DNA of 64,000 nucleotides from Adineta vaga (lineage: Eukaryota > Animalia > Rotifera). This document shows, in pieces, positions 751 through 62,385 of the stretch (its first letter is position 1; each line of letters starts with the position of its first letter). The notes under the pieces were generated by a model. The model did no database searches and was not told where the DNA came from. It worked only from the letters and a program-made list of their open reading frames with translations. Location of the stretch: assembly GCA_021613535.1 (NCBI GenBank), contig CP075493.1:17050001-17114000 (forward strand), written 5' to 3'. The position numbers and the translations under genes are program-made.

Positions 751-823
751 TGAGGGTGTGGGTGTGGGTGTGGGATGAACACTAGCTAATCATCTACACC
801 CACACCCCGGTGTCCTCATAAGA
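751..823. repeat. Head-to-head telomere-repeat junction element A
   Basis: TGAGGG(TGTGGG)3, about 20 nt spacer, then ACACCCACACCCC...CCTCATAAGA. Lies 74 nt after the TPR stop codon. Confidence 0.8.
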
Positions 824-3376: not shown

Positions 3377-3458
3377 TCTTGAGGGTGTGGGTGTATACGA
3401 TCGTTGGTTAAGATAGAATCCTTTTTCACACTCACACCAACACCTTCACTCTCACACT
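3377..3458. repeat. Telomere-repeat junction element B
   Basis: TCTTGAGGGTGTGGGTGT ... CACACTCACACCAACACC. Confidence 0.75.
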
Positions 3459-3924: not shown

Positions 3925-3970
3925 TTGAGGGTGTGGATGATTCTCTTCTCTTTACCCTCACCCACACCCT
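3925..3970. repeat. Telomere-repeat junction element C
   Basis: TTGAGGGTGTGG-ATGATTCTCTTCTCTTTA-CCCTCACCCACACCCT. Confidence 0.8.
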
Positions 3971-14173: not shown

Positions 14174-14555
14174 CAAGGGGGAAAAAGCGAAAAGTCGGTA
14201 CTCCAGTATACTCTTTGTACTCCCTCGGTAAGTTATCAGTATCCTTGAAATTTTTCTTAGTGTTTTCAAGTTCACCAGTGACCAGTGTTACAGTGCACCC
14301 GCTGGAGTACAATGTAACTAACACTAGCGAGCAGAAAGCCTCAAATACTCCAAAATACTCCAGTTTCGAAGTATCATGGAGTATTTGAACATTTCTATTC
14401 GCTAGGTTTATTTGCATTGTACTCCAGCGGGTGCACTGTAACACTGATCACCGGTGGACTTGAAAATACTGAAAAACCTCTCAAGAATACTCATAATTTA
14501 TCGCGGGAGTACAAAGAGTATACGGAAGTACCGACTTTTCGCTTTTTCCCCCTTG
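14174..14555. mobile_element. Foldback MITE with CAAGGGGGAAAAAGCG TIRs (copy 1)
   Basis: Long TIR beginning CAAGGGGGAAAAAGCGAAAAGTCGGTACT. A near-identical copy lies at 38046-38429 in the opposite orientation. TSD not resolved. Confidence 0.85.
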
Positions 14556-15065
14556 GGATAGGTGAGTGTAGGTAATCTTATCTTTCTTCACCCGTACCCT
14601 CAAAACCAGTTGAAGAGAATTGTCTTTCTCTGGTTAATTTATGAATAGCGTCGATATTCATCCATAAATGTTTTTCAAGTTCATCAGCTTTATTTGTTGC
14701 TATTGGTATTGAAGTTCCATTGTAACTATTAGTATCACCAGGATTAGCAAATTGATCTTTCATAGATTTATGTTTCTTTTATAAAGGCTCTAAAACTATT
14801 ACAGTGTTATTGATTAAATCCTAGTATCTCGTTTGATCGTTCATGTATATAAAGGTGTACCACATGGTTAGAATGCGTCGTATCGAAGTTACTAATTTCG
14901 ATATAACATATAAGAGTTCAGTTCAAAGTAGAATACCTGAATTTGAACTGAACTCTAATCCATTCTCCGATTTATACATGAAAAAGAAGAACAATGTTCT
15001 ATGGTGAAAAATAAAAGTTTTACTGTCAATTAGGAAACATGTAATAGGCAAGTGGTCTGTGCATT

Positions 15066-17150
15066 TCACAGAGCCTGTTTGACCTGTATGACGTATTTGC
15101 TTGGTCTGTCACAGGTTTCAAAATAACGGTCTGTGCTTGTCGTAGGCAGGCAGGCGTCATGACTTGTTTGAATCTCTTTTTTATCCTCATTTTGATCTTT
15201 CCAAGGTATCACATGTCCATCCTCTTTTTCATACATATTAAGATCACCAATGTATATGGAAATGAGCTTTGATTCGTCCAATGCTTTATGTGCTTGTTGC
15301 ACTGCTTTGTGATATTCTTCAGTATTTCGTTGATTAGAAGGAAATGATTGATCGACTATTTTATCTGCATAACAGTAGGCTTCTTCTTTTCGTCCCAATG
15401 TTTGTAATGATAAAGCGATAAAATAGTACGTAAACGTGATATCTGTATGTAATGATGGAAGAATAACGAGCAGAATATCAAGTGCACGATGATAATAAAT
15501 TAGAGCTTCGTCATCTTTTTCTTGTTGAGACAAAATATAAGCAATATTCTTATATCCTTCAGCAATTTTATTTTGATCTACTGGAGATAGACTTAACTGA
15601 ATATCTAAAGAACGCTTGTAATAGTCAAGAGACATGTCTAGATTGTCCTGACTAGCATAAATATTACCAATATTATCATAGCATTCACTGACAAATGAAT
15701 CTTCATGATAATGCTCTACTTGGATACAATCAACTGCTTTCTCACAATATTCGAGCGCTTGATCATATTTTTTCATCTCGTAATGTAATTTACCCATGTG
15801 ATTAAGTGCTATTGCGTTTTGTTTTGCATCTTTAATTCTTTCCAACGCTTTTTTATAGAACTCGTTAGCCTTCTCTTTTTCGTTCATATGAGACATCAAA
15901 TGTCCTAGCATGAGTAAAGGACCATTCGGATCATAGATATTTCTTTGTATGAAATTGGACAACTTTTTCATTTGAGGATCTGCATCGGATGTTAATTCTA
16001 GTTCAACTTGCCATAATCCCTTCTCTATCTGTTCAACAGATAACATTCGAAAGACGGTACCCATTGAGAACAGAAATTCACTCTCAGCTCCTTCAAAGGT
16101 ACTTTGTGTATCAGTACTTGCAACGGCAATATCTAAGTTCATTGTTGAATCTAGATGAATACACATAAAAACGGCTGTGATTTCTTCATTTCCAGAAGCA
16201 AACATTCGAGCAACATTGTGATCACCAGTAGTAGAAAGAAAATTCGAAATAGAAACAAGTCCACCTACATTTGATGCAAAGCGTTCAAATGTATCGTTCG
16301 GCATGCTAAGACCACGAAAAAGAACAGAAGGAAGTGTGAGTTCGGATTGTTGAGCAAGACTACGAAGTTGCTGATCGAGATGTCGTATAACAACTCGCAT
16401 AGCATAGATAGCATCAATCTCCAGCGTTCTTAATGCTTTATTAAGCATTCTGTATAGAAATGAATCACGTGTGTACCATTCGATACTATTTTCTGCACAA
16501 TATTCTCGCTCGAAGTCACCAATTTTCTTTAGTTCACTAACATTACCTTCATAAATTGTTCGACAATATACAAGCATATCATTCATATCTGTATCTGTCA
16601 TTTGAAGAATAATGTTCTTTATTATTTGAGTGTACATGAAACTTGATTCTTGCTTATTTTTTAGTTCTACACTTGTGGTTGTTTGATTTTGAGCAAATTC
16701 GAAACCAATCATATTTCTATCTGCTTGAGATATACTATCTTTTAATACTGCATTCATTGATTCAATATTTGTGAAGATACCCTGTACTTTGCGATAATAA
16801 TTTATTTTCTGTTGTTGTGTTTCTTTGTCAAGGTTCAAAATAAATATTGATTCGACTTGAACATATGAGTGAAGTTGCAGAATATTCTGTTCATCAAATA
16901 ATTCCGAAATAATAATAAAGATTTTTTCATGTTTGATTGTACTAATAAACTGAATACAGTCATCGATATTAAAAAAAGTATAAATATCATTTATAATTCG
17001 TTGTAATTCTTTTTCTTCAGCATCTTCTATTGGCCTACCAAGCCATACAAGAACAAAATTTTCTACATTAAATCGGTAACGTTCACGAATTGAAGCAGAA
17101 GACTGTACGATCTGTTCATTCGATTGCTGTACATTCTTTTCATTCAGCAT
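15066..17150 (-). CDS. ADP-ribosyltransferase (R-S-E type) + TPR repeat protein, intronless
   Basis: WYTRDSFLYRMLNKALR, LFRG, FLSTT and ESEFLF catalytic motifs followed by TPRs; 694 aa. Confidence 0.85.
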   Translation of the reverse strand: MLNEKNVQQSNEQIVQSSASIRERYRFNVENFVLVWLGRPIEDAEEKELQRIINDIYTFFNIDDCIQFISTIKHEKIFIIISELFDEQNILQLHSYVQVESIFILNLDKETQQQKINYYRKVQGIFTNIESMNAVLKDSISQADRNMIGFEFAQNQTTTSVELKNKQESSFMYTQIIKNIILQMTDTDMNDMLVYCRTIYEGNVSELKKIGDFEREYCAENSIEWYTRDSFLYRMLNKALRTLEIDAIYAMRVVIRHLDQQLRSLAQQSELTLPSVLFRGLSMPNDTFERFASNVGGLVSISNFLSTTGDHNVARMFASGNEEITAVFMCIHLDSTMNLDIAVASTDTQSTFEGAESEFLFSMGTVFRMLSVEQIEKGLWQVELELTSDADPQMKKLSNFIQRNIYDPNGPLLMLGHLMSHMNEKEKANEFYKKALERIKDAKQNAIALNHMGKLHYEMKKYDQALEYCEKAVDCIQVEHYHEDSFVSECYDNIGNIYASQDNLDMSLDYYKRSLDIQLSLSPVDQNKIAEGYKNIAYILSQQEKDDEALIYYHRALDILLVILPSLHTDITFTYYFIALSLQTLGRKEEAYCYADKIVDQSFPSNQRNTEEYHKAVQQAHKALDESKLISIYIGDLNMYEKEDGHVIPWKDQNEDKKEIQTSHDACLPTTSTDRYFETCDRPSKYVIQVKQAL

Positions 17151-17597
17151 CTATCTATATATATAAAGAAGACAGTCTGTCTGTCTGTTCGTTATGCATT
17201 CAGTCCCTGTAATAGCTAGGGTGTGGGTGTGGGTGTGGATTTAAAAGGAACAGAGCTATATGTCGTCTGCTTAGCGAGACAAGACCAGTATGAAAGAATC
17301 AATGAAGAGATGTAAAAAGTTCTGAAAAAAGAGACCTGGTGCATGACGCGAAAAGGGATATAGGAGGTACCCCAGTACGGAGGAGAAAGACGTGTGGAAG
17401 ACAGGTAACGCGAACTGAGTGACGATCTGAAGGCTTACATTAACACTAGCTAAGGCAGGACGGGAAAGGAAGGTGTAAGGATTTTTTGATACACGAAGGG
17501 TAAATACCAATGGAGAGGTCCGGTGGGTGATGAGAAGAGCACTGTTGTAGATGAAAAACTGAAATTGCGTCCTCTTTGCAGCGGGTATCTCCGCTAG
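17150..17597 (+). mobile_element. Non-autonomous Helitron
   Basis: 5' TCTATCTATATATATAAAG plus (CTGT)n; 3' GC hairpin AGCGG-GTATCT-CCGCT and terminal CTAG; inserted between A and T with no TSD. Confidence 0.7.
17218..17238 (+). repeat. One-armed telomeric tract D inside the Helitron
   Basis: AGGGTGTGGGTGTGGGTGTGG. Confidence 0.8.
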
Positions 17598-17906
17598 TAT
17601 TTAATAAACAACAGAAATCTCATTCGAAATAATCATGAAATTCAGTTGTCTTGTTTACTTTATAAGTTTAATTTTTACATATGTGGAGAAAAGAATGTGC
17701 CAGAAAAATAAAAAACGAAAAAAAGTCTCATGACACATTTATAAAAACTACCATGTGTACACAACGCATGTGATGGCGTTTGTAGTGATTTTTTCGCAGT
17801 AACGTCATTACTGAGTCGCACTACAACTCATAAAAAGATGTTTAATGATAAGAATTAAAACATCGTCGTTTAACTGCAGTAGTGTCAAACTTGAAACCTG
17901 AATTCA

Positions 17907-18750: not shown

Positions 18751-19987
18751 TATGGCATATTCGATTTCATTACCTGCAAGAGTAAGTAAATGAACATTTG
18801 TTGAGAAGGAAATGGAATATTTTCATATAGATAACTACTGCTTTATCTGTAACAGCATCTTCAGAAACGTTAGTATCAACAACAGCTAGTGATAATATCA
18901 AATTCAAAAATGATTTCATTTCCAAAATATCGACAATGAGAAATGAATCATTGAATAATCCTGTTCTTACATTAGAACGATATGATGAAACAGTTAAAGT
19001 AATTCGAAGAGAAATGATAAAGAAATGTCATTATTAAAAACTTACGATGTAATTAATCTTGGTAATCAAGATAAATCAGTTAAGAAAATTTATGAAAGAG
19101 AAGATACTACAATTAAATATTATGTTCCGCTAAGTGAAATTTATGATGTAATTAGAATTGCTCATTCAAATATAAGTCATCATGGTATGAAATATACTTT
19201 AAAAGAAATTAAGAGACGATGTGCGAATGTTACTGGAAAACAAGTTAAATTATTTATTTCTAATTGTGAAGAATGCAAAATGAAACGTTCTAAACCTAGA
19301 AACTCATCAAAATTAGTGATAAATCCGATTCTTTCAAATTATTTTATTAATTCTCGTGGTCAGGTTGACCTTATTGACATGCAATCGTACCCCGACGGAC
19401 CGTTTAAGTTTATATTGAATTATCAAGATCATTTTACGAAATTATGTGTTTTACGACCTCTTAAAAAAAAAACAACAGCAGAAGTCGCTTAGCATTTATT
19501 AAATATTTTTGCGATATTTGGTGCACCACTTATCTTACAGTCAGATAATGGAAGAGAATTTACCGCTCATGTCATTGAAGATCGTCAATAGCAAACCACG
19601 ACATTCACAGTCGCAGGGATCTGTCGAGAGATGTGATCAAGACACGAAACAGTTGTTAGGTATGTCAGAATGACATAGTTAATGCGCAATATTTTATTTT
19701 GCTATTTAGGAACATGGATCCGTGAAAATAATTCCACAAGATGGTCTGAAGAAATGGGCTTTGTACAGTTTCAAAAAAAAATTTGTATCCATCGAGAATT
19801 AAATAATAGTCCATATTCCGTTTTATTTGGGAACGAACCAAAATTAGATTTATCCTCAACATCTTTACATCCATTTGTATTTAATAATATAAGAACAGAA
19901 GAAGAATTAAATATTGTTCTTAATAGGACACGTGATAGTGATTCTAAAGTTTCTGATGATTTACAAGCGACAAAAGGGTATTACTAA
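18751..19987 (+). mobile_element. Degraded KRBA2/SCAND3-like DDE integrase (Ginger-type DNA transposon)
   Basis: HHCC zinc motif, RGQVDLIDMQ, YQDHFTK, FGAPLILQSDNGREF, PRHSQSQGSVER. In-frame stop and frameshifts. 3' part ends near half-junction E. Confidence 0.8.
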
Positions 19988-20046
19988 TTTATGCAAACAG
20001 CACAAACATCCAACTCTTTAAGAACGCGCATAACTTCTGCTGACAA

Positions 20047-20064
20047 ACACTCACACCCTCAAGA
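20047..20064 (-). repeat. Half junction element E
   Basis: ACACTCACACCCTCAAGA. Confidence 0.7.
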
Positions 20065-20169
20065 TGGCATAGTTGACTCGTAAGACGGTTTGACTATCAT
20101 AAGATTTTCTTCTTGGTTATATAATTATTAATCGATAATAAAGATAATAAATCGTCTTGATTAAAAATA

Positions 20170-20230
20170 TTGAGGGTGTGGGTGTGGGTACAGCATCGAT
20201 CAGACACTCACACCCACCCCTTTCTCAAGA
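20170..20230. repeat. Telomere-repeat junction element F
   Basis: TTGAGGGTGTGGGTGTGGG-TACAGCATCGATCAG-ACACTCACACCCACCCC...CTCAAGA. Confidence 0.85.
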
Positions 20231-20250
20231 TATTAGAATTTCATGTCATG

Positions 20251-21360
20251 ATAAATATTGTTTTGACTACTTTAGCTTTTTTGATTTTTTTAGTTGCAAC
20301 ATTTTAAACCACTACAAATGGTTGTGCTCGTATTCATCAAATGAAACTATTTTGGTTAAATTTTTTATTTGTTAATAAATCCATTTTTATGAGAACCACA
20401 ATTTAAAAAGCAAAGTAAAAATATTAATAAATTGCAATTTCCTCATCCATTCACAATAGAATGTAGTTAGTAAAATTATACTAAGAGAAAGTATTGAATA
20501 AAAAAACAGGATATTATTAGGTTCTCATACAAATAACACACTATTTCGTACAACTAGTAGAGATAAATAATATTATAAATAAAGAAAATAGATTTGTTCG
20601 TCTCTATCCACTAATAACTTTAGTATTTCCGTCTGGTGATGACATTATTGGTTTTGCAACTCCAAAAACAACATTAGCGTTACTCGCCATAACTCCTCTG
20701 TATGTACCGACTTGATTGTCTCTTGTTTCTTCTGTACCATCAGAATATTTAATAGTTAGGTGAGATGTAAACGGAACTTCAACCGTTCCTTCTATAACAA
20801 ACATTGATGCATCTATGGTCGAATTTGCTGGTACTAGCACTTCTAATGTATATTCGTTTGATTTTTCTTCGGTTGTTTGCGAGCCGTATGAAAATCCTAC
20901 TGTGATACTTGCACTAACTTTCACTGTGCCTTCAGCAAGTATGGGAAATCCACATTTCAATGTGGTCTCTACGCCAACCTAAAATGGAAAGTATATAGTA
21001 ACAAAAAGAAAAGGTTCATGAACTATGAATAATGCCATCAGTTCTCATAAGGCATACGCTTGATGCATATGTTTTAGTTTTTTATTCAATAGTTTTAAAA
21101 TTTCTACCGATATTTTAGTGACCTATTGTAATAGTTCATTTTAATATATATAATCGAACAAGAATCTAGTTATCTAGCAATCTCAGTCTAAAAAACGATT
21201 ATAAATGTGTGAGTGCGATGTCTCTTCAATCTTTCATTATACCAATTAAATTCTATAGTTTGAAATAATTGAGAAAAATTCTTTTAGTCTGTGAAGATTT
21301 CACTTACTGACAGTTCAGCTGAGAAAGTAAACGATTGAGTACGACTAGTTTTATAGGTAA
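20251..21360 (-). pseudogene. 5'-truncated duplicate of the aerolysin-like toxin gene (3' UTR, last exon, last intron, end of the previous exon)
   Basis: High identity to 28706-29991. Homology stops exactly at TATAGGTAA|GGGTGTGGG. Confidence 0.9.
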
Positions 21361-21403
21361 GGGTGTGGGTGAAAGTGAAGAAGATATACCCACACCCTCA
21401 AGA
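21360..21403. repeat. Telomere-repeat junction element G
   Basis: AGGGTGTGGGTG-AAAGTGAAGAAGATATA-CCCACACCCTCAAGA. Confidence 0.85.
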
Positions 21404-22070
21404 TCAAATCGAAGTTCTTCGAGGTTATTAAATACTTTACAGAATTGTTCCAAATCTTCTAAATTCTCATTAGTAAAACATCCAATACGTAATTTCTTAA
21501 TGGATTTGTTTAAATATTCGCATAATTCATCATCACGGAGATAATCTATTGATACTTTTGGATGAATCTCGAGTGATGATAACTATGATGCCGCTTTTAA
21601 TATATCTTTTAATATAGCTGAACTTTCAACCCATACATAAGACATAGTTAAATGTTTGATAGTTGATAAATTAACGATTTTAAAAAGATGTTTTGTATTT
21701 TGAGTAGTCATTTTGTAATCTTCTTGCTTTCACGGTCCAACTTCGTCTGTAATACATAATGAAATAACACTCGGAAAATGATACTGACTCTTCTGTTTCA
21801 ACATTGCAGGAAAATACGTTAAATATGTAACAAAATCGAATGTGTTTACATGTTTTATTGATTCATTTATATATTTGTTAGTTTCTCCTGTATATTGAAG
21901 GGTATCGAATGCATATGGTATTGCATAAATTGATCTTGAATCTGTAGATATAAAATAATCTGTATACCAATGATGTTTTTTGCACCAAAAATCATTCTGA
22001 AATTGATTGAAAATTTCAAAAATATTATTTAATTCTGAATCTGAATAAATGTTACTGCTTTACTAATACT
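21404..22070 (-). pseudogene. Internal fragment of an F-box/LRR-like gene bounded by junction G and half-site H (22072-22082)
   Basis: FQNDFWCKKHHWYT...IYAIPYAF and LSTIKHL...ILKAAS..LSSL motifs typical of bdelloid F-box proteins. No start codon; stops present. Confidence 0.55.
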
Positions 22071-22326
22071 GACACCCTCAAAATAAAGAACGTGATGAAA
22101 GCGAAATCCTGACAAAGGAACACAAATAGAAAAAAATCAAACTAATCATGATTTATCCACTGACGCAAATCCTATATTTGTTAACAATGGAAAAATTTCT
22201 ATTTGATTTTAAGAAAAAACACGTTCCAGTATGAATACATCAATGTCTATCAAATCATATTTTGATTCCTTTTCTAACAAATTTCTTTTTTTTTATCAAT
22301 TACTTTAAAATTATTTTCTAGACAAA

Positions 22327-25300
22327 ATGTGGAATTTAAATCATTTTATCATAATTTTCCTTCTTTTTCTCATTTTCAACAATGAAGCATTAGGTAAGTC
22401 ATTTTACCGATCACTCATATTCATTATTCTCTTTACGAAAATTGTTTAACATAAATATTTTAGCTACTTCAACTAATCAACCAAACTTATCTACAACAGC
22501 AGTTTGGGATCGTAATGGAATCACGATTGCTAACCGTTCGATTGTTGGGGACTATCCTCGAGTTATTTTTGTCGATATCAACAATACAATCTATGTCACT
22601 AATCAAGGAAAGATATTGATATGGCATAACGATAGTATCAATCCAACAAAGATCATGCCAGTAAATTTTTCAAGTTCTATGGGTTTGTTTGTAACTTTAA
22701 ATGGTAATATTTATGTTAATGACGGTTTGTTCAGTGGTCAGGTGAAGAGATGGACACTAAAGACAAACACTTCTGATATTGTCATGAATGTGTATTCATC
22801 ATGTTATAGTCTATTTGTTGATATCAATGACAATTTGTATTGTTCAATACATATGTATAATCGAGTAGTGAAAAGAGACTTGACTAGTTCTTCTATGGAA
22901 ACGATCACGGTTGCTGGAACAGGTCGTCCAGGATATGAGTCTAATGAACTTGAGAACCCAAGAGGAATCTTCGTTGATACAAATTTCGATTTATATGTTG
23001 CTGACTGTTTCAATAATCGAGTTCAATTGTTTCAATTAGGTGAAACAAATGCTATCACAGTTGCAGGACAAGGATCGGTAGATTCAGCTCTTGTCTTGTA
23101 TTGTCCAAATGATATAATATTAGATTCTGACAAATATCTATGGATTTTAGAACAAACGAATTTTCGTATAGTCAGAGAAGGACCGTATGGTTTTCGTTGT
23201 ATAATTGGATGTTACAGACAAGGCTCCCAATCCAATAGATTGGATAGTTCGTTTACTTTTGGTATGAATGGTTTTGGTAACATATTCGTTGCTGATGTAG
23301 GAAATCATCGAGTTCAAAAATTTCAATTGATAAAAATCACTCCTGGTAGGTAGACGAAAAACAATAGCTGAATAAGGTCAATGATTTTACATTGAAAAAA
23401 CATTTTTCAGAAGTTCGGTTTCTTTTTTTAATGTTTTAGCTGTTCCATTTAATCAACCGCGATTTTGTCAAACAGCAACTTGGAATCGTTACGCAATCAC
23501 AATTGCTAACCAATCGATCGTTGGAAAAGATCCTACAGTTATGTTTGTCGATACAAAAAATACAATTTATGGCGCTAATTATGAAAAGAGCGAAATTTTA
23601 ATATGGCATAACGATAGTCTCACTCCGACAAAAATCATTTCAGGTAACTTTTCACATCCATCCTCTTTGTTCGTAACATTGAATGGTGATATTTATATTG
23701 ATGATGGTGATGTGGGTAATCAAGTAAAGAGATTGAAATCAAACACAAATACTTTTGATAATGTCATGAATGTGTATTCATCATGTTATGGTCTATTTGT
23801 CGATATCAATGACAACTTGTACTGTTCAATGTTGTATCATCATCAGGTGGTGAAAAGAGACTTGAATAGTCCTTCGATGGAAATGATCACGGTAGCTGGA
23901 ACTGGTACGAAAGGATTTAATTTTAGTGAACTTAATGGTCCACTTGGAATCTTTGTTGATATAAACTTGGACATATTTGTGGCAGATTGCTCGAATCATC
24001 GAATTCAGTTGTTTCAATCAGGTGAAAAAAATGCTAAAATAATTGTAGGATTTGACTTCGCACTATCATTAGTAAAGGATATTTCATTGAGTTATCCAAG
24101 CCATGTAATACTAGATTCTGACAAATATTTATTTATTGTGGATCGTGCGAATTCACGTATAGTTGGAGATGGACCACATGGTTTTCGATGTCTTGTTGGA
24201 TGTGATAAAGAAAGTATTCAATCCAATCAACTTAATTTGCTAACTACTGTTAGTTTTGATACTTTTGGTAACATGTTTGTTGTTAATCAAGTAATGAATC
24301 GATTCTTAAAATTTCAGTTCTTTGAAAATTCTTGTAGTAAGTAGATTTTATTATTAATAGAGTTTATCTCAAAACTTCCTCCTTGTTTAATAGCGTCTCC
24401 ATTCAATCAACCAAAATTTTGTGCAAAACCTGTTTGGGATCGAATTGGAAAGACTTTTACTACTGAAATCACACTTGGTATAAATCCTACTGCTATTTTT
24501 ATTAATGAAAAAAATTCAATTTACGCTATTAATCGAGAGAAGAAACAAATTTTAATTTGGCATAAAAATAGTACTGATCCATCAATGATCATTTCTACTG
24601 ATTTCTATAATATATCTTCGCTATTTGTTTCATTAAATGATGATATTTACATTGATAATGGAGTGAATGGTCGAGTAAAAAAGTGGATATCAAAAAGAAA
24701 TACATTTGTTAATGCGATGAATGTTTTCTCACCTTGTGTTAGTTTATTTGTCGATAGAAATGATTATTTATATTGTTCAATGTCTAATTTTCATCAAATT
24801 ATCAAAATATATATGCATGAACGTGCTATGACATGGATCGCCGTGGCTGGAACGGGTGAAGCAGGATTTACTTCTTTGGATCTTGATCACCCCTACGGCA
24901 TCTTTGTTGATTTAAAATTTGATTTATATGTGGCAGATTGTGGAAATAATCGAATCCAACGATATTTATCAGGAAATATAAATGGTATTACAGAAGTAGG
25001 AAGTACATCAGCACGACACACACTTGCACTTTCATGTCCAACTGAAGTTACACTCGATTATCAAGGATTTTTATTCATTGTCAATTCGAACAATCATCGT
25101 ATTCTTCGATCAGGATCCAATGGTATCCATTGTATTATTGGATGTCATCATAGTGGTTCCACATCCACTCAATTGTTATTTCCATTTAATATTGCTTTCG
25201 ATAGTTTTGGAAATCTATTTGCTGTAGATTCAGGAACTAATCGAATACTAAAGTTTCAATACTTAAAAAATTCTTGTGGTAAGTAAGACTATACACATGA

Positions 25301-27413
25301 ATTCAATACGGAGAAATCATAATAAGATTTATTTTGATTTCTGTTTCATAGATATGTCATCAATGATTAAATGGACAAATTTATCAACATTAACTAAAAA
25401 TAGTCCAATGTATTCTCAAGATTGTGATTGGCAAAGTTTTTATTATGACGCATTTCAAGTAAAAGTACCTGAAAATCGTTATTATACAATACGAAGTAAT
25501 GCTAAAATTGACACATATGGTTACCTATATGAGAATGAATTTGATCCACTTAATCCAACTGAAAATCTCCTACTAAAAGATGATGATGGTGGATATAATG
25601 GTCAATTCAAATTTGAAATTCCCCTCTATAATGATATGATATACATATTATTAGTGACTACATTTACTCCAATCACAGTTGGCGACATAGAAATTAATAT
25701 TTTCGGCTTGAAAAATGTTACTATCAAACGTCTTAGTAAGTAGATACATTATTTTATTGATTGTCAGTATGAGATCTGAAAAATATTCGAAGAGTAATGA
25801 ATAAACTTAAGATTAAAACGTTTTCATTGTAATTGAATAGCTACATCAGTAATTATTCAATCCACTTATTCATCTGAATTGACTACTAATAGTGCAAAAT
25901 ATTGTCGTGATTATAAAAAACCAAATTATTATTATGAAACATTAGAAATTAATGTTAAAAAGACAGGTTCATATGTTCTTTGGAGTAAAAGTGAAATCGA
26001 TACATATGGTTATCTTTATAAAGATGACTTTGATCCATTACAACCATTTGGTAATCTAATAACTCAACATAATGGAAAATGTAATCAAGGACAATTGAAA
26101 TTCTTTATTGACATCGAAGCAAATACAAAGTATATATTGGTTGTAACAACTTATTATTCAAATACAACAGGAAATTTTACTATTTTTATATCTGGTGAAA
26201 ATAATGTTACTGTTCAATATTTCGGTATGTATCTGATTCAATATCTTCGTACTTACATGAAAATAAATATTTTAGATTCAAAACAACGTAGTTGTTCTAT
26301 TGGAGATCGATGTCATTTCTATACGACAACTATTGGTTTACCTCTTGATGATATTTTACGTGGTGAAATTCAACCAAATGCAACATTATCTACTCAATTA
26401 GTTTCGATTCAAATAAGTGCTGGTCTAACAATCCTTATGTTCATTGGAGGATTAGTGAATAGTATTTTTTCTTATTTAACATTTAAAAATAGAGAAGTAC
26501 GACAAGTTGGATGTGGATTGTATCTTTATGCATCATCGATTACTTCTCTTCTAACAATTAGTATGTTTCTCGTCAATTTTTGGTTTGCAGTTCTCACTCA
26601 AATCAATGTATCGACAAGTTTTTCTATTCTTCATGGAGGTTGTATAATTATTGAACCTATTTTAAAACTCTTTCTCAACTGTGATACTTGGTTAAATGCT
26701 TGTATTGCTATCGAGCGGGCCATACAAGTTCTCAAAGGAATTCATTTTAACAGAAACAAGAGCAAACGTGTCGCTCGATGGATTATTTTCATTTTACCAT
26801 TTTGTATCATGGTGAGTCTTATTCACGAACCTTTGCATCGAAATATGTTTGAATATAAAACTGAAACTATCAAAGCTTATGTCAATAAAACTGAGAGTGA
26901 TTCAATAGATGTAATCAAATCAGAAAAGAATAAGAGATTAATAGAAACAATCTATCAAAGTACAACAGATCGACATGTATATGGTGTGTCATTCGTTATT
27001 CTTCTTCTGTTCAACAATACAATATTGCTATTCTATTTTTTCATCTTATTGTTCCATTTATTGCTAATTTATTTTCGGCTTTATTTATTATTTTTGGAGG
27101 TGCACGACAAAAATCAATAACAAAAACTGCTCAAACTTTTAAAGAACATGTTCATCAACAATTAAGTGAACATAAACAATTGATTATTAGTCCTATAGTA
27201 TTACTTCTTTTATCAATGCCTCGTCTAGTCATTTCAGCACTTCCTGGATGTATGAGAACATCACAAAACTTATGGGTGTATCTCACTGCTTATTTCTTGT
27301 CATTTACACCATCGATACTCATTTTTATGATCTTTGTTATACCTTCGAATCTCTACACGAAAATATTTATAAAATCTCTTACTTGCTGGCCACCTCGATC
27401 TCATCAATCTTGA
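22327..27413 (+). CDS. Class-A-like GPCR with a large ectodomain (signal peptide, 3 NHL propellers, 2 beta-sandwich repeats); frameshift near 26980
   Basis: Signal exon at 22327; three NHL exons; two YYxxxxIxV...IDTYGYLY...FDP repeats; 7TM with GLVNSIFS, CGLYL, ACIAIERA. A frameshift precedes WCVIRYS/TM5-7. Confidence 0.8.
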
Positions 27414-27447
27414 GGATTATGGAAGAGACGCACTACTCTCACCCACA
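27408..27447. repeat. Degenerate junction element I overlapping the GPCR stop codon
   Basis: TCTTGAGG...CTCTCACCCACA. Confidence 0.55.
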
Positions 27448-27490
27448 ATAAAGTTTCAATGACGTGTTTTATTTCAAAACTTTTTCCTAT

Positions 27491-28400
27491 TTAAACGTAG
27501 AGGTTTTTTATGTGTGATCTCGCGCAGTGGAGTAGTGTCAAACATTTAATTAATAAAAACTTTTCCACCACCTGCTTTTCGTCTAACACATTGATTAAAA
27601 CTAACATGCTCACATTATTGTCGAAAACGCCAACATCTCTGATCCGCCCAACCATTATAAACACATTCTTCACTCAAATACTTTCCATTATAAACAGCTG
27701 CATCACGAAAAGCTGGTTGTACCTGAATCAATGGATGATCATGTGGAATATTCCTTTGTTATTTATTGAAAATAATTTATTCATATTCGATTGCCAAGCA
27801 ATTGAAATCAAAGATGCTTGCCGAGAATATGCTATAAAATCAACTGACATTGTTGGTGATGCACGTTATGCCCAAAGATCATAATAAAAATCTGTTTGAG
27901 ATAAAATTATTGATTGTAAAGTTTGGCGATGAAACTTTATACTTAAATATAATTTTCATCGTTGATTTCCTACAGTATAAATATCAACATGTTTGGAATC
28001 ATTTAATGCCCATTGTTGAAGAAATCTTAATGTACCATCTTGAGAATCTGATTCACCTAGATAAATTTTATAATTTCCGAATGAACTTCCCATAGAAAGA
28101 ATATTATTTTGAAAATGAACAAGATCTTTTTCGACATTTCGACAACAAGCTGTTATGATTAACGTCAAATATGTTAAATTAACTTTATCAATGGTTATTA
28201 TTGGTGAAGGAATTAATTGATCATTTGATGATGTTTGATTATATTCCCAAAATGCTTTCGATATTATAATGGAGACACTTGAATAAGTCGATTATATATC
28301 TACGAATTATCATAATAATTAAGATCATAAACATTATCATTGATATCATACAATAATTCCTTACAATTTTTATTCGATAATTTAGTCGAGAAAATCTCAT
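27491..28400 (-). pseudogene. Glycosyltransferase (CAP59/GT-A-like) pseudogene
   Basis: IITACCRNVEKDL, IYLGESDSQDGT, YYDLWA*R, V(Q)PAF..AAVY motifs, with frameshifts. Confidence 0.6.
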
Positions 28401-28660
28401 TTTATTATTTAACCTATATTTTATTCTCGTACTTGATCAATTGAAATATGCAACGAACATATTATTTTATCTTAACATCGAATATAAAAACTGTCATAAA
28501 ACTTTCACCGATGTACTTTTTTTTCTTCTCTTATTTGCACGATTCATTGATTCATATACGTTCTCTTTCTTTCACACGTGATAGAAAATAAGTAACTAAC
28601 TACACCGAAGACTATTTTCATTAAATATTTATTTTACACTCTAACGATCGATCAGATACA

Positions 28661-28704
28661 TCTTGTGGGTGTGGGTGTTAGTATTAAATCTATCTAATAC
28701 CCAC
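28661..28704. repeat. Telomere-repeat junction element J
   Basis: TCTTGTGGGTGTGGGTGT-TAGTATTAAATCTATCTAA-TACCCAC. Abuts the start of the duplicated toxin 3' flank. Confidence 0.75.
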
Positions 28705-29065
28705 TATAAATATTATTTTGACTACTTTAGCTTTTTTGATTTTTTAGTTGCAATATTTTAAGCAGCTTCAAATTAAATAGTTTGTGCTCGTATTCATCAA
28801 ATGAAACTATTTTCGTTAAATTTTTTATTTGTTAATAAACTCATTGTTATAAGAACCACAATTTAAAGAAAACAATGTAGAGATATGAATACATTGCAAT
28901 TTCCTTATCCACTCAAAATAGAAAGTAGTTATTAAAATTATTCTAAGAGAAAGCATTGAATAAAAAAATAGGTTATTTTTAGGTTCTCATGCAAATAATA
29001 CACTATTTCGTACAACTAGTAGAGATAAATAATATTATAAATAAAGAAAATAGATTTGTTCGTCT

Positions 29066-32000
29066 CTATCCACTAATAACTTTAGTATTTCCATCTGGTG
29101 ATGACGTTATTGGTTTTGCAACTCCAAAAACAACATTAGCGTTACTGGCCATAACTCCTCTGTATGTACCGACTTGATTGTCTCTTGTATCTTCTGTACC
29201 ATCAGAATATTTAATAGTTAGATGAGATGTAAACGGAACTTCAACTGTTCCTTCTATAACAAACATTGATGCATCCATGGTCGAATTCGCTGGTACAACC
29301 ACTTCTAATGCATATTGGTTTGATTTTTCTTCAGTTGTTTGTGAGCCGTATGAAAATCCTACTGTGATACTTGCACTAACTTTCACTGTGCCTTCAGCAA
29401 GTATGGGAATTCCACATTTCAGTGTGGTCTCTACACCAACCTAAAATGGAAAGTATATAGTAATAAAAAGAAAAAATGTTCATGAACTTTGGATAATGCT
29501 ATCAGTTCTCATAAGGCATACGCTTGATGCATATATTTTAGTTTTTTATTCACTAGTTTAAAATTTCTACAAATATTCTAGCGACTTGTGTGGATTATAA
29601 TCTCAAAGGAAATGCTCATAATATAATAAATTATTTGGTCAAATATATGTTGTAATATATGAGAAGGAATTAAATACGGTACGAAAATATAAAGTTAACT
29701 GTAAGAACTCAGAAAATTTCTCTATGAGACATTTCAATCACTCGATCTAATCGAATAAGGATCTGGTTATCTAGCAATATCAGTCTAAAAAAACATTAGA
29801 AACTATTGGAAATATCGTCGATATGTATTATAAATGTGTGTGTGTGCGATGACTCTTCAATCGTTCATTATACCAATTAAATTCTATACTTTGATATAAT
29901 TGAGAAAAATTCTTTTAGTCTCTGAAGATTTCACTTACTGACAGTTCAGCTGAGAAAGTAAACGATTGAGTACGACTAGTTGTATAGGTAAATGCATAAG
30001 TTTGCTTTTGATTTAGTGGCGAATAATTTGTCAATACTGTGTTGAACACTGTTCGTGGAGTACCAGATTGTGTTATTTGAGCATTAGTTAAATCGTAAAC
30101 TACAGATGAAACAGTGTATTGTTGTTCTTCTTGAGTCCAATAAAATCTGATTTGATTGAGATAATTGCCAGATCTTCCACTTATATATGATAGGACATAA
30201 CCTGGATACTGTTCAACAAAATCCTTATTTGATGCGGCAGCACCACATCGAGGGCTTTTTCTTCCTTTGTTGGTAGTGAACATTAAGCCGCTCACAGCAG
30301 TGCCGACACTTCCTTCCACTTTTACAATCCGTTCATCGGCATCTATACTAAATTTACATTCGGATCCCCCAGTACCACCATGTTGCGATGCTTGACGTAT
30401 TATTCCACTAGCTGCTCCATAATTTATTTGAATAGCATCGATACTACTACCAGCTTTTATTATTATTAGTCTGGGAGTATATACTGCATCATAGCCAATC
30501 TCATCTATATCATTAAATGCATTGTCTGTATTGAAACCATGTGGATCACCTTTCAGTAGGTCCTTTAGCACTAAAATAAAAACAAATACAATAAACATAT
30601 TACGTATCGCTAATTATTACATTCATTTCTTATTTGTCATCTTTTATACAATATTAATTAAATATCAGATGATTATTAATAAGTACTAGTGAAAAATAAA
30701 ATTCATTCAGACTTACTTTGTGAACTATCACAGTATCCAGTCATGACACCAACTTCAGGGGTATCAGCTAATGCTGTTGTTAGTAAAAAGCATTTCTTTG
30801 CATTCTTAGCAGCACTTGCTGTATAATAGTTCCATACTTTGCAACTAGACATTTTGTCACATTCGCGCATACATGCTTCAGGGGATGCCTTGTCAACACC
30901 AGCATAACCATCCATCACTATTCCTCCTACAGTATTCATATTGCTCTTCATTTTTTTGCACGGTTGTTTAACAATATTTTCTAGAAACACAAACATAAAT
31001 AATTAAGATTCATTTTAAATTATTAACATTACTTAATACAAATATATTTTATGAACTATTAGAATAGGTATGGAAAAATAAATAGTTGAGATCCGTATTT
31101 TGATTAGAACTCATTTTTCTTTTCCATACAATTTTAGCTACTGACGACGAAAAACTACTTTTAAGAGTAAGATATGCTGATTTAGAAAGACGATGTTTGA
31201 AATCTTAATGACCAGAGTGCAAAGCGAATTCGTCTATCTGAAACACAGTTTTCATGTAACTACTATTATTGCTTACCAGGTTGTTTTTTTGCGTAGACAG
31301 AGAAGCCTTTTTGGTAATTTAGTGAAGGTTGACCACCATTGCACTCATGAAGATAACAATTTCCATTACTATTATCTATATCGAATGAATCGCAGCCTGC
31401 TTTTACATCACAAGCAGCTTTGCACCTAGCAAGACCCAGAGGGCCAGAACTGACTGTAAGAGGACACCTACTTCCATAAATATTGAAATCAGTCGCAATT
31501 AGCATGTAGTTGTCCGCTGAAGTAGTTACTAGAATAAAATGGATAATTAAAATTTAAAATCAATTGTATATGTACATGCAGGAAAAACAAGATTGCATTC
31601 TTCAGAATGGTGCTTCACATCGGGTATTTTGGATATGTGAAACTGCTGATATATATATGCACAACAGTGTGTAAAATATACCTTTAGTTTTTAAGCATAT
31701 ATACCTACGGCTTGCTTCGAAGCTGGAACATTATCGTCATCGTTCTCGTCTTGAGGGTGAGGATGAGGAGTGAAGGTGGAGATTAGTTCTACTACGTGAG
31801 AAATATCACATCTCCATCGTCCGTCTCCAAAAAAACCATCTACACTCACACCCACACCCATACCCTCAAATCGTTTTCATAAGATTTCTCTTACCTGTAG
31901 TAGTAGTAGTAGTAGTAGTCTTGTAGTATGCTTTTCTATTACTGCTTGGAGAAATATTCGGATATTCTGACGAACATTTCAGAAGATCACATCGAGTCGG

Positions 32001-32869
32001 ACTAACACTGTAGTTTATTCCATTACAATCAGTTGTTGACGAACACTTTTCTTTGCAAGCATCAACTGATAGTATATTGGTTATACCCCAAACAACAGAA
32101 GGACAAACTGCCAAACCAGACTCTGATAACGTCTTCCAACTATCACCTACAAATCAACAAAACAAGATCAAATAGAAATGTATATTATAAGTATTGCTGA
32201 AGTGTTGCATATGGAAGAGTAGACAATAGAATGTTATCGCCTCCTTTAACATGACTACATTGTCCGTATGATAATATCCGCACCGACACCCTCAACTGAA
32301 CTAGAACTTGTCACCCGTTGGAAACTAGTGAATCTTTGTATTGCTTTTTTTTCTCCAAATAACCCTTTCCTCCAGAGATCAATAGAATCAATCCTCAAAT
32401 AGTGCGTTTCTTATAGGTGATGATAAACTGTATTTGCGGGTTTGTTATTGCTCGGAAATTTGTGCCGGTGTGGAAAAATAATTTACTAGATCCAAGTCTG
32501 CATGGGTTATATTCATCGAAGATGCTAACTCAAGGAGGAAAAAGCGAAACTTCATATTTTAAATACTTCATTTCACGTCATCGATTCTTTGGATGAAAAA
32601 GGAAATGATCAATTTGAATGGAAAAACTTACCTGAAGAAGCACGCTCTTGCAATAATGTGCGAACTTCCTCGTTACTGTCTTCATCTTCAAGTGTCTGTT
32701 CTAGAACATGTCGCAATAACATATTTCTCTGCTTATTGTTGCCATACTTGTAACGATCACCTTGCCGACGTAGTGCTTCGATATAAGAGTCGTCTGTTGC
32801 AACTGACGAATGTTTCGCTAAAATTGCAACGAACACCATAATCACTATCACTATAGTGGATGAATGCAT
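29066..32869 (-). CDS. Secreted aerolysin/natterin-like pore-forming toxin: signal/pro exon, 3 PAN/Apple exons, jacalin lectin, aerolysin-type pore domain (6 exons)
   Basis: MHSSTIVIVIMVFVAILA signal; C-x3-C PAN motifs; jacalin GSSIDAIQ..HGGTGG..LMFTTNKGR; S/T-rich beta-hairpin TQSFTFSAELSVGVETTLKCGIP..VVPANS..VPFT. Confidence 0.85.
31749..31870. repeat. Junction element K inside a toxin-gene intron
   Basis: TCTTGAGGGTGAGGATGAGG ... ACACTCACACCCACACCCATACCCTCAAA. Confidence 0.8.
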
Positions 32870-33075
32870 TTGGTTGTTATTTTGGGTGAGGATATAAGAT
32901 AATGCGTCGATTGGTAGAATATCGTTAAATTTATACAATCGGTAAGTAAAGGTGCTCTTTCAACCATACCACGATGTTGTTTCAAAGGAAAGAAAAAGTA
33001 TTGCTAATTAAAATGCGCTGTCTATTCAACCAGAACTCGGTGTTGTTTCGCAAGATTAGAAAAAGGATATTTGTT

Positions 33076-33140
33076 GGGGTGGGTGTGGGTTTGGGTGTGA
33101 GGGTTTGATCGATGCAGTACCCACACCCACACCCTCAAGA
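33076..33140. repeat. Telomere-repeat junction element M
   Basis: GGGGTGGGTGTGGGTTTGGGTGTGAGGG-TTTGATCGATGCAGTA-CCCACACCCACACCCTCAAGA. Confidence 0.85.
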
Positions 33141-33734
33141 TCCTCGCTGAGATCCACATTAGAGCTGAGCATATAATAGAACACACGCCTTGTCCTGCAG
33201 ATAAGGGTTTCAGTTTTAATCCTGTCTTATCCGCTTCACAGGACGAGTGGGTCAGAGCAGTAGGCAGGGCAGGAGGAAAAAGTTTGTCCTTTGCTCACCT
33301 CTGACCAACATCCATTCCATGATAATACTTACTTAATTTGTCTCATTTTTGTTCTGAATTTTATCAGTTGAATTTGGATGATTATGGCATTTGCGATCAA
33401 ACATAATAGTGAGCAAAGTGTCCTTTCGAGCAACTGTCCTAAACCCATTTGCACATCAATCTCATTCATACCTTCAAGAAAAAAATTAAACTTAAAAGAT
33501 ATCATTAGATCATCTGTGTTCGTTATTTGATTATTTTTTGATACTGATGAATTGTTTTCAAATTCACTTGTATCCAATGGATCTTCCCAACATATTAAAT
33601 CACTATCATCTAGTTGTATATCGAGTTCATTACTTGAAGATAAAATATTATCTGATAACCGTTGATTGGTCACAAAAAGACATCTATAAAAGAGGAAAAA
33701 AAGAATATTATTTTAAAAGAAAGAATCAATGTAT

Positions 33735-36944: not shown

Positions 36945-38045
36945 TTGATGGATATCTAAAAGAAATTTCATGACTTAATTTCATTTTAACGAACGATATT
37001 CACTCGAATTGATTCATTTAACAAAATGACTCAAATTCGACTATAATGATACTTTTTATTATATATCGATTCATAGAAATCGTTGACTTATTCAGTATTT
37101 TTTAACCTATAATTTCGTAGATATGAAGTAAATAAAAAATATAATTATATAGTTACTATTGATGTAGAAAGAAGACGAAAAAACCAAGTTACGATATGCA
37201 ATCAAATGAGTAATGGGTAAAAAAAAATGTTTTATATATGTAGTACATAGTTCGAATGAAGTCATCAGTACATTTACAGAAAGAAACGATGTGAGTCATG
37301 GTGTTTGTGATGTATAAGGTATAGTCCTTTACATAAGAACTTTTCCATATACATTCTATATGTGTTTTTCTTTCGTTCTTGTTTTTTTCCTATACATGCA
37401 TATGAGTGAGTTGCAACTTTATTGTACGATTGATTTTTTGACGTGTTTTGCTTTTAACTCCAGTTCTTGTTGACCGATTTAAACTTTTTTTGTTTTATTT
37501 TACTTCTTACCTCATGCTCGTACTGCCATATAATTTCCGAGTCTCTACCTTGCACATTCGTGGAGATATTCGCATTGGAGAACAAAAAAGAAACATTTTT
37601 GGATGACTCATCCAAGCTGAAACTAATTTTTCGAGCAAGGAAAGAGGAATAAAACAGAAAATAAATAGGACGTTTTGTAGAGTAATTTTCAGGCTATCGA
37701 AACATATGATTCATAAATTCATTTTATTTTATTTTTGTGATCCTTTATAGAGGTAATACTTTTACACACACATGTAGCTCCAGACGAAAACCAGCACTGT
37801 CAAATTACAGAAACCAGTTTTGGAAAAAAAGAATCTATCACAAGATAGAGTGTAAAAAACTCTGTCGAAATAGCCTAAAATATTCTAAAAAAAATTCTTT
37901 TTACGGCAAGAAAAACACAGAAACCCTTGTTGTCACTCACTTTGCAGCACTAGATTTTCGGAAGTTTTTTATCAATAGCTTTTGATGTACTTGTCCGATC
38001 TTGTTCAAGCTTTTACCCAAAAAGTTAGTAAACAAAAAGTTCTTC

Positions 38046-38429
38046 CCAAGGGGGAAAAAGCGAAAAGTCGGTACTTCAGTATACTCTTTGTACTCCCACG
38101 ATAAATTATAAGTATTCTTGAGAGGTTTTTCAGTATTTTCAAGCCCACCGGTGATCAGTGTTACAGTGCACCCGCTGGAGTACAATGCAAATAAACCTAG
38201 CGAATAAAAATATTCAAATACTCCATGATACTTCGAAACTGGAGTATTTTGGAGTATTTGAGGCTTTCTGCTCGCTAGTGTTAGTTACATTGTACTCCAG
38301 CGAGTGCGCTGTAACACTGGCCACTGGTGAACTTGAGAACACTAAGAAAAATGTCAAGGATACTGATAACTTATCGAGGGAGTACAAAGAGTATACTGGA
38401 GTACCGACTTTTCGCTTTTTCTCCCTTGG
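38046..38429. mobile_element. Foldback MITE with CCAAGGGGGAAAAAGCG TIRs (copy 2)
   Basis: Inverted near-identical copy of 14174-14555. Confidence 0.85.
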
Positions 38430-40479: not shown

Positions 40480-41036
40480 GGATGTAACAATACCAATACT
40501 CCAATACCGTATCGGTATTGTTACATCCCTACCATTGAACACAATGGTGGAATACCGATATTCTAAAAACCAATTCGACCTGGATGATCTTGAATGGTTG
40601 TATAAGTTCCACTTTATAATTTTAATTGTTTCTTTTCGATTTAGATCATGAACAACAATTTTTGTCAATAAAGAATTATAAAATGGTGAAATTTCTATTC
40701 CATTACAAATCCAGCTATCAATACGAACATCTTTTGATAGAAATTCAACTTGATAAAAACCTGATGATAGACGAAAATCATGTAAAAGATCTTCACTACA
40801 AATTCGATCTTCATTTGATGAATCAATTGATTTTGCAGTAAATTATATAATTCATCAATTGTTTCACCAGCTGCTAATCTTATCATCCATTCAACAAGAT
40901 CAATACCAAATATTGCTTCAGTAACGGGGATATTCAACCTTCAAAAAAAATTATTAATAAGTAAAATTCAAATTGAAAATTTAATTTAATTGTAAACGAC
41001 AATTTGCTTCAAGGGAATAATTCTTTTTTGAAATTC
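40480..41036 (-). pseudogene. Urea carboxylase / urea amidolyase fragment
   Basis: SLEANCRLQ/VEYPVTEAIFGIDLVEWMIRLAAG (biotin carboxylase), VRIDSWI.NG.EISPFY, then YST...YWSIGI (start of the carboxyltransferase domain). Truncated at junction O. Confidence 0.75.
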
Positions 41037-41268
41037 GAGGGTGTGGGTGCTTGCGTGTGTTTTCTCTTTCATCATCCACACCCACACCCACACCCACACC
41101 CACACCCACACCCACCCAGACCCAGACCCACACCCACCCAGACCCAGACCCAGACCCACACCCACACCCACACCCACACCCACACCCACCCAGACCCAGA
41201 CCCACACCCACCCAGACCCAGACCCAGACCCACACCCACACCCACACCCACACCCACACCCACACCCT
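41037..41268. repeat. Junction element O with an expanded (CCCACA/CCCAGA)n arm
   Basis: GAGGGTGTGGGTG, spacer, then about 180 bp of CCCACA and variant CCCAGA hexamers. Confidence 0.9.
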
Positions 41269-41407
41269 GAATGTAAACAATTAGAACAATTAAATCAAAT
41301 GATTGATATGAGCAAGTTATTAAAGAACTATATTGTATATCGTCAATACGAACGATTTTATATAACAATGGAAATGAATTTAGTTTAATAATTAGAATAC
41401 CATTGAT

Positions 41408-46900: not shown

Positions 46901-46951
46901 TGGGGTGAGGGTGAGTGTTGGTTAACTACGTAGATCCACACTCTCACACTC
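46901..46951. repeat. Degenerate junction element P
   Basis: TGGGGTGAGGGTGAGTGT ... CCACACTCTCACACTC. Confidence 0.6.
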
Positions 46952-53777: not shown

Positions 53778-54716
53778 AGGTACCTGTAATTTATGCAATC
53801 ACCCGTAATCACCCAACCTTTTGAGATACGATAAAAGTGAGTCTGACAACCACCTACAACTCGATGAGTTATGTTCACAAACAGCCACAATCACCCACAT
53901 TTGATGAGTTTTAGACGAAATAAACCGCCCACAAAGGTGAAAAAAATAGTCCTCTTCAAAACAACCATCCAGAATCTCTCTTATAGTTCCACAAACGTCA
54001 GAAGTTGTCTCCTACAACCACCCATAGAATTACAAAAGCTACATTTTCTCAAGCACAAGTAGTGGGTTTACATAGGCCTGTAAGGATCTGAATGGGGGTG
54101 TGGGTGAGTGTGCATATAGTTCTCAGTTTGGCGTATAAGCGCGCAAAGGGTGTCCACATTCGCTTGCCTGATATTCGCACTAACATATGATGTTGAATAA
54201 GTATGAGTACGGTTATAATTAGTGAAACTATCAGTGTGGGTGTGGGTGTACTTGTACATCTCGTCGATGAAGAGTGAGTTAATTAGAATGTGTGAATTGG
54301 TTAAGTTTTGGGAGTGAGGAAGGAAATGTGGACACCCTTTGCGCGCTTATACGCCAAACTGAGAACTATATGCACACTCACCCACACCCCCATTCAGATC
54401 CTTACAGGCCTATGTAAACCCACTACTTGTGCTTGAGAAAATGTAGCTTTTGTAATTCTATGGGTGGTTGTAGGAGACAACTTCTGACGTTTGTGGAACT
54501 ATAAGAGAGATTCTGGATGGTTGTTTTGAAGAGGACTATTTTTTTCACCTTTGTGGGCGGTTTATTTCGTCTAAAACTCATCAAATGTGGGTGATTGTGG
54601 CTGTTTGTGAACATAACTCATCGAGTTGTAGGTGGTTGTCAGACTCACTTTTATCGTATCTCAAAAAGTTGGGTGGTTGTGGTGATTGCGGGTGATTGCA
54701 TAAATTACAGGTACCC
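53778..54716. mobile_element. MULE-type foldback element
   Basis: Near-perfect arms of about 385 bp (53778-54160 and 54325-54716); 9-bp TSD AATGTAAGG. Confidence 0.9.
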
Positions 54717-62276: not shown

Positions 62277-62385
62277 TGGGTTTGGATGGGTGTGGGTGTG
62301 GGTGGGTGTGTAGGTTTGGGTGAAGAAAAGAGATTTAACCCACACCCGCCCACACCCATCCATCCACCACACCCACACTCTCAAG
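62277..62385. repeat. Telomere-repeat junction element Q
   Basis: (TGTGGG)-like run, GAAGAAAAGAGATTTAA spacer, (CCCACA)-like run, CTCTCAAG. Confidence 0.85.

Follow-up and report, generated by a model that had tools for sequence, protein, structure and literature searches.

We analysed a stretch of 64,000 nucleotides from the genome of the bdelloid rotifer Adineta vaga (assembly GCA_021613535.1, contig CP075493.1, positions 17,050,001 to 17,114,000; hereafter the window, numbered from its first letter), in which short cassettes of mirrored telomeric repeats recur. The window has a GC content of about 30% and open reading frames (ORFs) with TPR, NHL, ART, jacalin, SDR and transposase domains; from this gene mix and the repeat density we infer that it fits a subtelomere. 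Two A. vaga proteins match one ORF of the window at 99% and 95% identity. A cassette consists of a tract of the form [ATCT]TGAGGG-TGTGGG(n), a spacer and then the mirrored tract. TGTGGG is the published telomeric repeat of A. vaga (PMC8494291; here and below, statements from the literature rest on portions of the cited papers), and the TGTGGG/TGAGGG tracts lie internally in the window, as in short interstitial telomeric sequences (ITSs). Short telomeric stretches in bdelloid subtelomeres were already known (PMC2861651; PMC7943196). The cassettes described here are real, recur reproducibly in bdelloid samples and show more order than repair filler.

Cassettes in the window and in wild samples

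A fuzzy tract scan recovered 11 G-tract/spacer/C-tract cassettes, and inspection by eye added two decayed cassettes and several single arms; the density of cassettes is about one per 5 kb. Under a strict pattern seven matches were head-to-head and none tail-to-tail, against a shuffle mean of 0.005. Arms range from about 12 to 190 nt, and five of the six cassettes that were folded form hairpins (z -2.9 to -4.7), the exception being cassette D. The features are listed below, with the strand where one was assigned; the letters C (3926) and O (41036) were given by inference from order and sequence.

751..807, cassette A: clean arms, unique spacer
3380..3458, cassette B
3926..3969, cassette C: on the minus strand, arm and first 9 spacer bases identical to wild locus L102
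14562..14603, cassette D: decayed; minus strand purine-rich; nearest to Q
17219..17238, plus strand, tract E: lone G-arm inside a high-copy repeat
20046..20065, C-arm whose outer end is canonical, lying 107 nt to the left of F; no G-arm can be clearly recognised as its partner
20171..20231, cassette F: G-arm 20171-20189, spacer 20190-20205, degenerate C-arm 20206-20231; hairpin z -3.3
20232..21360, minus strand, truncated jacalin/aerolysin-type gene region between F and G; 92% to 28706-29585, 81% to 29745-29991
21361..21404, cassette G: purine-rich spacer 21371-21387; G-arm begins where the duplicated gene piece ends
22068..22081, lone decayed C-arm
27411..27448, decayed cassette at the stop codon of an NHL-repeat/GPCR-like gene (GPCR, G protein-coupled receptor); contig-bridged
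28664..28704, cassette 28664: opens the longer gene copy; bridged by contig 27869-28811
28700-31750, minus strand, gene with jacalin and ETX/MTX2 aerolysin-type domains: longer copy of the 20232-21360 region
31752..31869, long-spacer cassette: spacer of 91 nt, starting as G-to-A decayed TGAGGG units
32278..32295, lone decayed C-arm
33072..33141, cassette M: G-arm 33072-33104, spacer 33105-33118, C-arm 33119-33137, AGAT 33138-33141; hairpin z -2.9
41036..41267, cassette O: 190-nt C-arm
46903..46951, decayed cassette
62277..62384, cassette Q: purine-rich 16-nt spacer

The C-strand tract of O (41070-41271, 190 nt) contains CCAGAC variants and a 74-nt internal duplication.

A metagenome scan returned at least 120 further loci (numbered with the prefix L); the 72 with a GC content of at least 44.5% were removed and 48 AT-rich loci kept, all of which have the same cassette form among the matches listed. 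The final set held 65 cassettes, 54 of them wild (again among the matches listed) and 11 from the window; the allelic duplicates L049:325 and L120 were left out, as was the 91-nt spacer for most tests. For 48 of the wild matches the scan pattern admitted only exact arms and gaps of 8-38 nt, so that arm quality and spacer length are biased there. Protein matches link four wild loci to bdelloids: the GPCR encoded by L077 has its nearest named relatives in bdelloids (65% A. steineri, 49% A. vaga), L061 contains a similar GPCR, and L009 and L085 match NHL genes of the window. The other 44 are assumed to be bdelloid from their composition and cassette form. General patterns gave 3 and 16 matches in viral contigs and 6 in prokaryote genomes, these being viral contigs of 41-69% GC or bacterial records; the viral-contig matches that were inspected resembled chance or terminator-like hairpins and were rejected as cassettes.

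Spacers and their families

Cassettes F and M had been described, in an earlier sequence-only reading of the window, as near-identical in inverted orientation, with unrelated flanks. Both points hold. The reverse complement of 20170-20215 is identical to 33093-33138 at 43 of 46 positions, and a repeat search of the window returned the pair as an inverted repeat of 50 nt at 92%. Over the central 17 nt, 14 positions match, a value attained by 1 of 200,000 shuffles. Local alignment of the 500-nt flanks scored 33 and 37, with a median of 36 for random pairs from the window, and a single segmental duplication carrying the flanks is excluded as the cause of the likeness. Sequencing runs of three studies yielded contigs that cross F (19531-20351) and M (29952/29923-33533) with zero differences, and neither cassette is therefore an assembly artefact; one of these bridging runs may be the source of the assembly. 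That the pair brackets 13 kb is correct as geometry and goes no further, with six or more further cassettes or single tracts between F and M. Contig depth over the M spacer is about 1330, compared with 62 for the contig of the window itself (80% cut-off), the loose ends of contigs aligned to M are mutually unrelated (agreement 0.55-0.63), and two contigs run through the F spacer with a one-base insertion. The F/M spacer pattern had no matches in prokaryote genomes or viral contigs. On the mechanism proposed below, F would have been copied locally, in inverted orientation, from M or from a donor common to both.

A spacer is present in all 65 cassettes and is never shorter than 9 nt (the scan demanded at least 8 nt for 48 of the wild matches). 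Its median length under the strict rule is 23 nt; trimmed of decayed repeat units, spacers have a mode of 16 nt (12 of 64), with 25 of 64 at 14-18 nt. They are also polar: the purine-rich strand is maintained across the entire spacer, and the two halves, each read from its own arm, are coupled in purine content (r -0.53, 0 of 5000 permutations). The same correlation is -0.63 for window spacers alone (p 0.006) and -0.41 for A/T skew alone. Such coupling points to a spacer that arose, by synthesis or copying, as a single unit. An origin from two separate G-rich extensions that met mid-spacer was considered and rejected, since a G-to-C gradient is present but the halves are coupled. A hypermutable loop was likewise rejected, the allelic pairs L029/L049 and L053/L120 differing no more in spacer than in flank.

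Similar spacers also occur more often than expected. Pairs with a score of at least 24 number 7 against 0.5 expected (polarity-keeping order-3 Markov null, 0 of 100), those at score 20 number 21 against 5.5 under the strictest null, and close pairs exceed the composition and half-wise nulls as well. Arm-anchored 9-mers with at most one mismatch form 18 pairs against 0.86 (80 of 128 arms; three 9-nt spacers were counted on both arms). Three families can be recognised, namely F/M, a wild family around GATGAATATAAT and a family with a purine start. The second, which is the largest, takes in 11 of 40 spacers at 8/12 or better to L061, grading from 12/12 down to 8/12 identity between intact arms; an exact 12-mer is common to three wild spacers. 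The purine start is common to C, D, Q and B and to wild L102, L036, L024, L119 and L108. One ancestral spacer for all cassettes is unsupported by the spacer comparison.

The sequence-only reading had also held that the spacers are not random filler, and this is borne out by their polarity, by the modal length of 16 nt and by close pairs above every null; families with unrelated flanks exist. Its purine-rich type, for which strings were quoted that are indeed present in G (21367) and Q (62318), stands for C, D and Q and is weak for G and O. Among ten pairwise shuffle tests (G, Q and the reverse complements of C, O and D), Q-D, C-D and Q-C gave p values of 0.015-0.025, uncorrected, with 0.18 for G-Q and at least 0.32 for each pair with O. 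The suggestion that spacers were copied from a few templates fared worse: most are singletons, and within a family the spacers can differ by as much as a third where the arms are intact, a pattern that disfavours few fixed RNA templates. Lineages of copied DNA cassettes fit the spacers better than fixed RNA masters.

Cassettes at breakpoints

A tract marks a breakpoint or deletion in all five testable cases (G, F/28664, L011/L063, E and M). Tracts start at breaks with 2-4 host-matching bases, and the first unit is often TGAGGG. Cassette G truncates a duplicated jacalin/aerolysin-type region, whose alignment to the longer paralog stops at GGTAA, and cassettes F and 28664 open the same gene region at points about 30 nt apart. 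Pack-type elements with fixed ends were rejected as the nature of the segments, since the two gene copies begin at different points. L063 departs at GTGA from the paralogous L011; a single locus has reciprocal deletions in the two, of 69 and about 140 nt, each with a cassette. In each of three runs, 20-23 contigs come loose at 17218, where E starts, and proceed into non-telomeric sequence. The paralog of the right flank of M starts at 33138, so that AGAT is common to both and the arm is not; no contig joining both M flanks was found in the runs.

The repeat around E (17150-17598) is a high-copy sequence whose interior is replaced by the G-tract, with a summed contig depth of about 2,000-30,000 against about 70. 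Its ends we take to be Helitron-like (5' TC; 3' hairpin plus CTAG).

Outer ends follow a pattern. TGAGGG is the outermost unit in 67 of 130 arms and TGTGGG in 44 of 130, figures that are partly forced by the scan pattern. ATCT precedes the outer TGAGGG at 15 of 47 ends (3 of 8 in the window, 12 of 39 in wild loci) against a background of 0.56%, and many cassette ends without ATCT grade into host microhomology. The outer-end pattern is that of repeat addition primed on broken ends. The enzyme adding the repeats is presumably telomerase, and ATCT would then reflect the telomerase RNA just 3' of the template.

For both parts of 20171-21360 the homologs, at about 92%, lie within 28.7-33.1 kb, a placement that suggests DNA donors nearby. 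It is what one would expect had F and its gene piece been copied from neighbouring DNA in a single episode.

Segments between cassettes are often about one gene long (22080-27413 and others), and a cassette lies at or shortly after a stop codon at 27411, in L021 and in L068; gene-length segments may reflect selection for intact genes. Uninterrupted ORFs adjoin cassettes in L074 (1976-3103), L038 (645-1664) and L069 (538-1158). They encode a carboxyl methyltransferase, an LCIB carbonic anhydrase and a GNAT protein, respectively, types that are uncommon in animals or that in bdelloids are often of foreign origin, and the L074 gene is flanked by cassettes on both sides.

A proposed mechanism and its alternatives

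Our preferred reading, to which we would give about an even chance, is that cassettes at rearrangement joints arise by telomerase healing and by copying of the spacer from an existing cassette. Two broken ends would each be healed by telomerase, gaining G-rich 3' tails. Both tails being G-rich, they could not pair with each other, hence the need for a bridge from an existing cassette. One tail would invade such a cassette through repeat homology, be extended across its spacer and C-arm, and be released with a C-rich 3' end that could anneal to the second G-tail. The outer arms would be renewed in every event, and the spacers would be inherited and drift. Renewed arms and inherited spacers would together account for the head-to-head polarity, the obligatory polar spacer, its modal length, the graded families and the unrelated flanks; graded divergence between exact arms is predicted by many DNA donors and not by one RNA master.

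Several observations weigh against this reading. No intermediate was seen, nor a donor-recipient pair with a dated direction. Singletons make up 43 of 63 cores at score 20 and 53 of 63 at 22, and the trimming rule behind the 16-nt mode was chosen after the data were seen. Once the 11 closer members of the GATGAATATAAT family are removed, the remaining spacers are unlinked to it (p 0.14); nor do the window spacers as a set resemble that family (p 0.63), M scoring 7/12. C matches L102 over the first part of the spacer only, which one-sided read-through fits equally well, and ATCT at both ends of some cassettes fits insertion of a preformed whole unit just as well. Of the 49 contigs that aligned to M, 11 did so at 95-99%, and these matches may be arm-only; arms alone can sustain an alignment at the 80% cut-off, which leaves the F/M family with between 2 and about 13 members. 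Finally, three assemblies supply 27 of the 28 named wild loci, which possibly represent one or few species.

Spacers could instead be reverse transcribed from RNA, by read-through of the telomerase template, as very short complementary DNA of Terminon/Athena 3' ends, or from a linker RNA, a small hairpin, that a telomerase-like enzyme would copy. We regard this as unlikely. It would explain the strand polarity of the spacers and the recurrence of arm-anchored motifs across species (C and L102; L036, L024 and L119 within 1-2 mismatches). Precedents exist in Terminon RNAs, whose terminal ACACCC/TCACCC stretches pair with G-overhangs (PMC6431247), and in TERC read-through with head-to-head repeats at 3 of 41 vertebrate loci (PMC8537989). 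Against it, the six clean-armed cassettes of the window hold five different spacers, arms are exact yet family members differ by up to a third, and no spacer extends into a longer shared element. A hammerhead core motif matches the window five times, never beside a cassette, and Terminon insertion yields one repeat orientation, with no mirrored arm 16 nt on. Quite unlikely, in our view, is that each spacer is newly made by untemplated, purine-biased addition followed by a jump to the other G-tail, pairs such as F/M being rare later copies. Polarity and the abundance of singletons would follow, several purine-rich spacers (e.g. G, 31752 and Q) start like G-to-A decayed TGAGGG, and A. vaga has six copies of DNA polymerase lambda and one of polymerase theta (PMC6264785). 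However, the families stand out above nulls that retain purine polarity and short-word bias, and neither the exact 12-mer in three wild spacers nor the modal length of 16 nt is accounted for.

A transposon origin appears very unlikely to us: the cassette would be a 50-bp miniature inverted-repeat transposable element (MITE) with telomere-like terminal inverted repeats (TIRs), moved by a DNA transposase, and the flanking rearrangements would be secondary. Its mirrored arms are in fact terminal inverted repeats, the ATCT-TGAGGG boundary outside both arms is sharp, core size is modal and hairpins fold, and TIR transposons are the largest class of transposable elements in A. vaga (PMC8494291). Yet direct repeats longer than 4 nt flank none of the eight two-ended cassettes (a 2-bp AT duplication would escape this search), and none of the five testable cases has an empty site. 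In addition, ATCT is missing at many ends, which grade into microhomology with the host, arms reach 190 nt, and single arms such as E stand alone. Inverted arms around a short variable core are likewise found at integron attC sites and at the circle junctions of Oxytricha TBE and Euplotes Tec elements. The sequence-only reading had compared the spacers with attC hairpins; as attC-like recombinase sites, with F and M bounding an invertible or mobile 13-kb unit, they would have hairpin potential and the inversion of F and M in their favour. We consider this barely credible. There is no target duplication outside F and M, several further cassettes lie between them, paralog breakpoints differ, and neither a tyrosine recombinase with a fixed crossover nor any other recombinase domain occurred among the 38 window ORFs scanned. 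Unlike attC, TBE and Tec junctions, the cassettes are not tied to a recombinase or transposase, do not bound cargo at a fixed point and vary in arm length (about 12-190 nt). We thus see no sign of attC-type sites or of a 13-kb element.

Comparison with known systems

The cassettes behave as break-associated ITSs do, and they lack defining features of TALT, Terminons, MITEs and attC sites. By analogy, they may work like the insertion of ITSs at vertebrate breaks combined with TALT-like copying. Vertebrate short ITSs and TERC-ITSs resemble them in having telomeric repeats at repaired breaks with deletions and microhomology, in the non-telomeric sequence that adjoins the repeats and in the existence of a head-to-head form (PMC8537989). 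These vertebrate sequences differ in that 41 loci are described in 22 species, three of them head-to-head, with the insert traced to telomerase RNA (PMC8537989), whereas in the cassettes head-to-head is the rule and spacer lineages are many. Our searches found no rotifer telomerase RNA. In TALT of Caenorhabditis elegans telomerase mutants, unique sequence flanked by repeats is copied to new ends by repeat homology (PMC8034613), and a core recurring at several unrelated sites is found here too, in F/M and the wild families. TALT units are, however, 135-1446 bp long and copied in one direction as new telomeres (PMC8034613); the cassettes have inverted arms and a core of 9-40 nt, join two pieces, and stand as single internal units with neither same-direction repeats nor tandem end arrays.

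Terminons and Athena elements share with the cassettes the host animals, the TGTGGG/TGAGGG repeats, attachment to G-tails and subtelomeric gene capture, but they are kilobase elements with a reverse transcriptase (RT) and hammerheads that form head-to-tail chains (PMC6431247; PMC5537684), none of which the cassettes have. No RT domain of Athena type was found among the 38 scanned of the 43 window ORFs of at least 120 aa, and no hammerhead matched in an Rfam search of the window at E values up to 1. Telomeric repeats are also reported at deletion breakpoints in A. vaga, as neotelomeres; these are described as end caps, and rejoined mirrored cassettes or spacers do not figure in the portions of that report used here (PMC13564844). 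Mirrored cassettes, spacer families and the ATCT signature are undescribed in the literature searched, which covers the papers in part and leaves outside it the primary Athena/Terminon papers, the 2008 gene-transfer paper and supplements, so that prior notice is possible.

Other features of the window

A large palindrome at 53779-54715 (359-nt arms at 99%, 154-nt centre) contains telomere-like tracts and looks like a fold-back or breakage-fusion product. Two self-complementary, MITE-like sequences of 385 nt (14174-14558 and 38044-38428) are 97% alike, one copy adjoining cassette D. A tRNA-like sequence at 55695-55768 is the sole Rfam match above threshold in the window, microRNA matches falling far under it, and a 72-nt tandem repeat of 2.5 copies lies within an ORF at 59157-59333. 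For 19500-29400 no RNA data set was listed as containing the stretch, which does not bear on expression there. Depth at 14664-16655 and 29936-31263 is that of a single contig at the 80% cut-off, which suggests that these stretches are without an allelic partner in these runs.

Implications

Bdelloids rejoin shattered chromosomes and take up foreign genes into subtelomeres. It is possible, if doubtful, that a noncoding "telomere splint" of about 50 bp propagates itself as a bridge between telomerase-healed ends, that it is the standard subtelomeric joint for host and foreign gene pieces, and that its outer end (33124-33141) spells part of the template region of the rotifer telomerase RNA. The outer end of the cassette offers a concrete query for that RNA. 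A stereotyped joint with heritable spacers would leave a sequence mark for each repair event, by which rearrangements and gene insertions in these animals could be dated and ordered.

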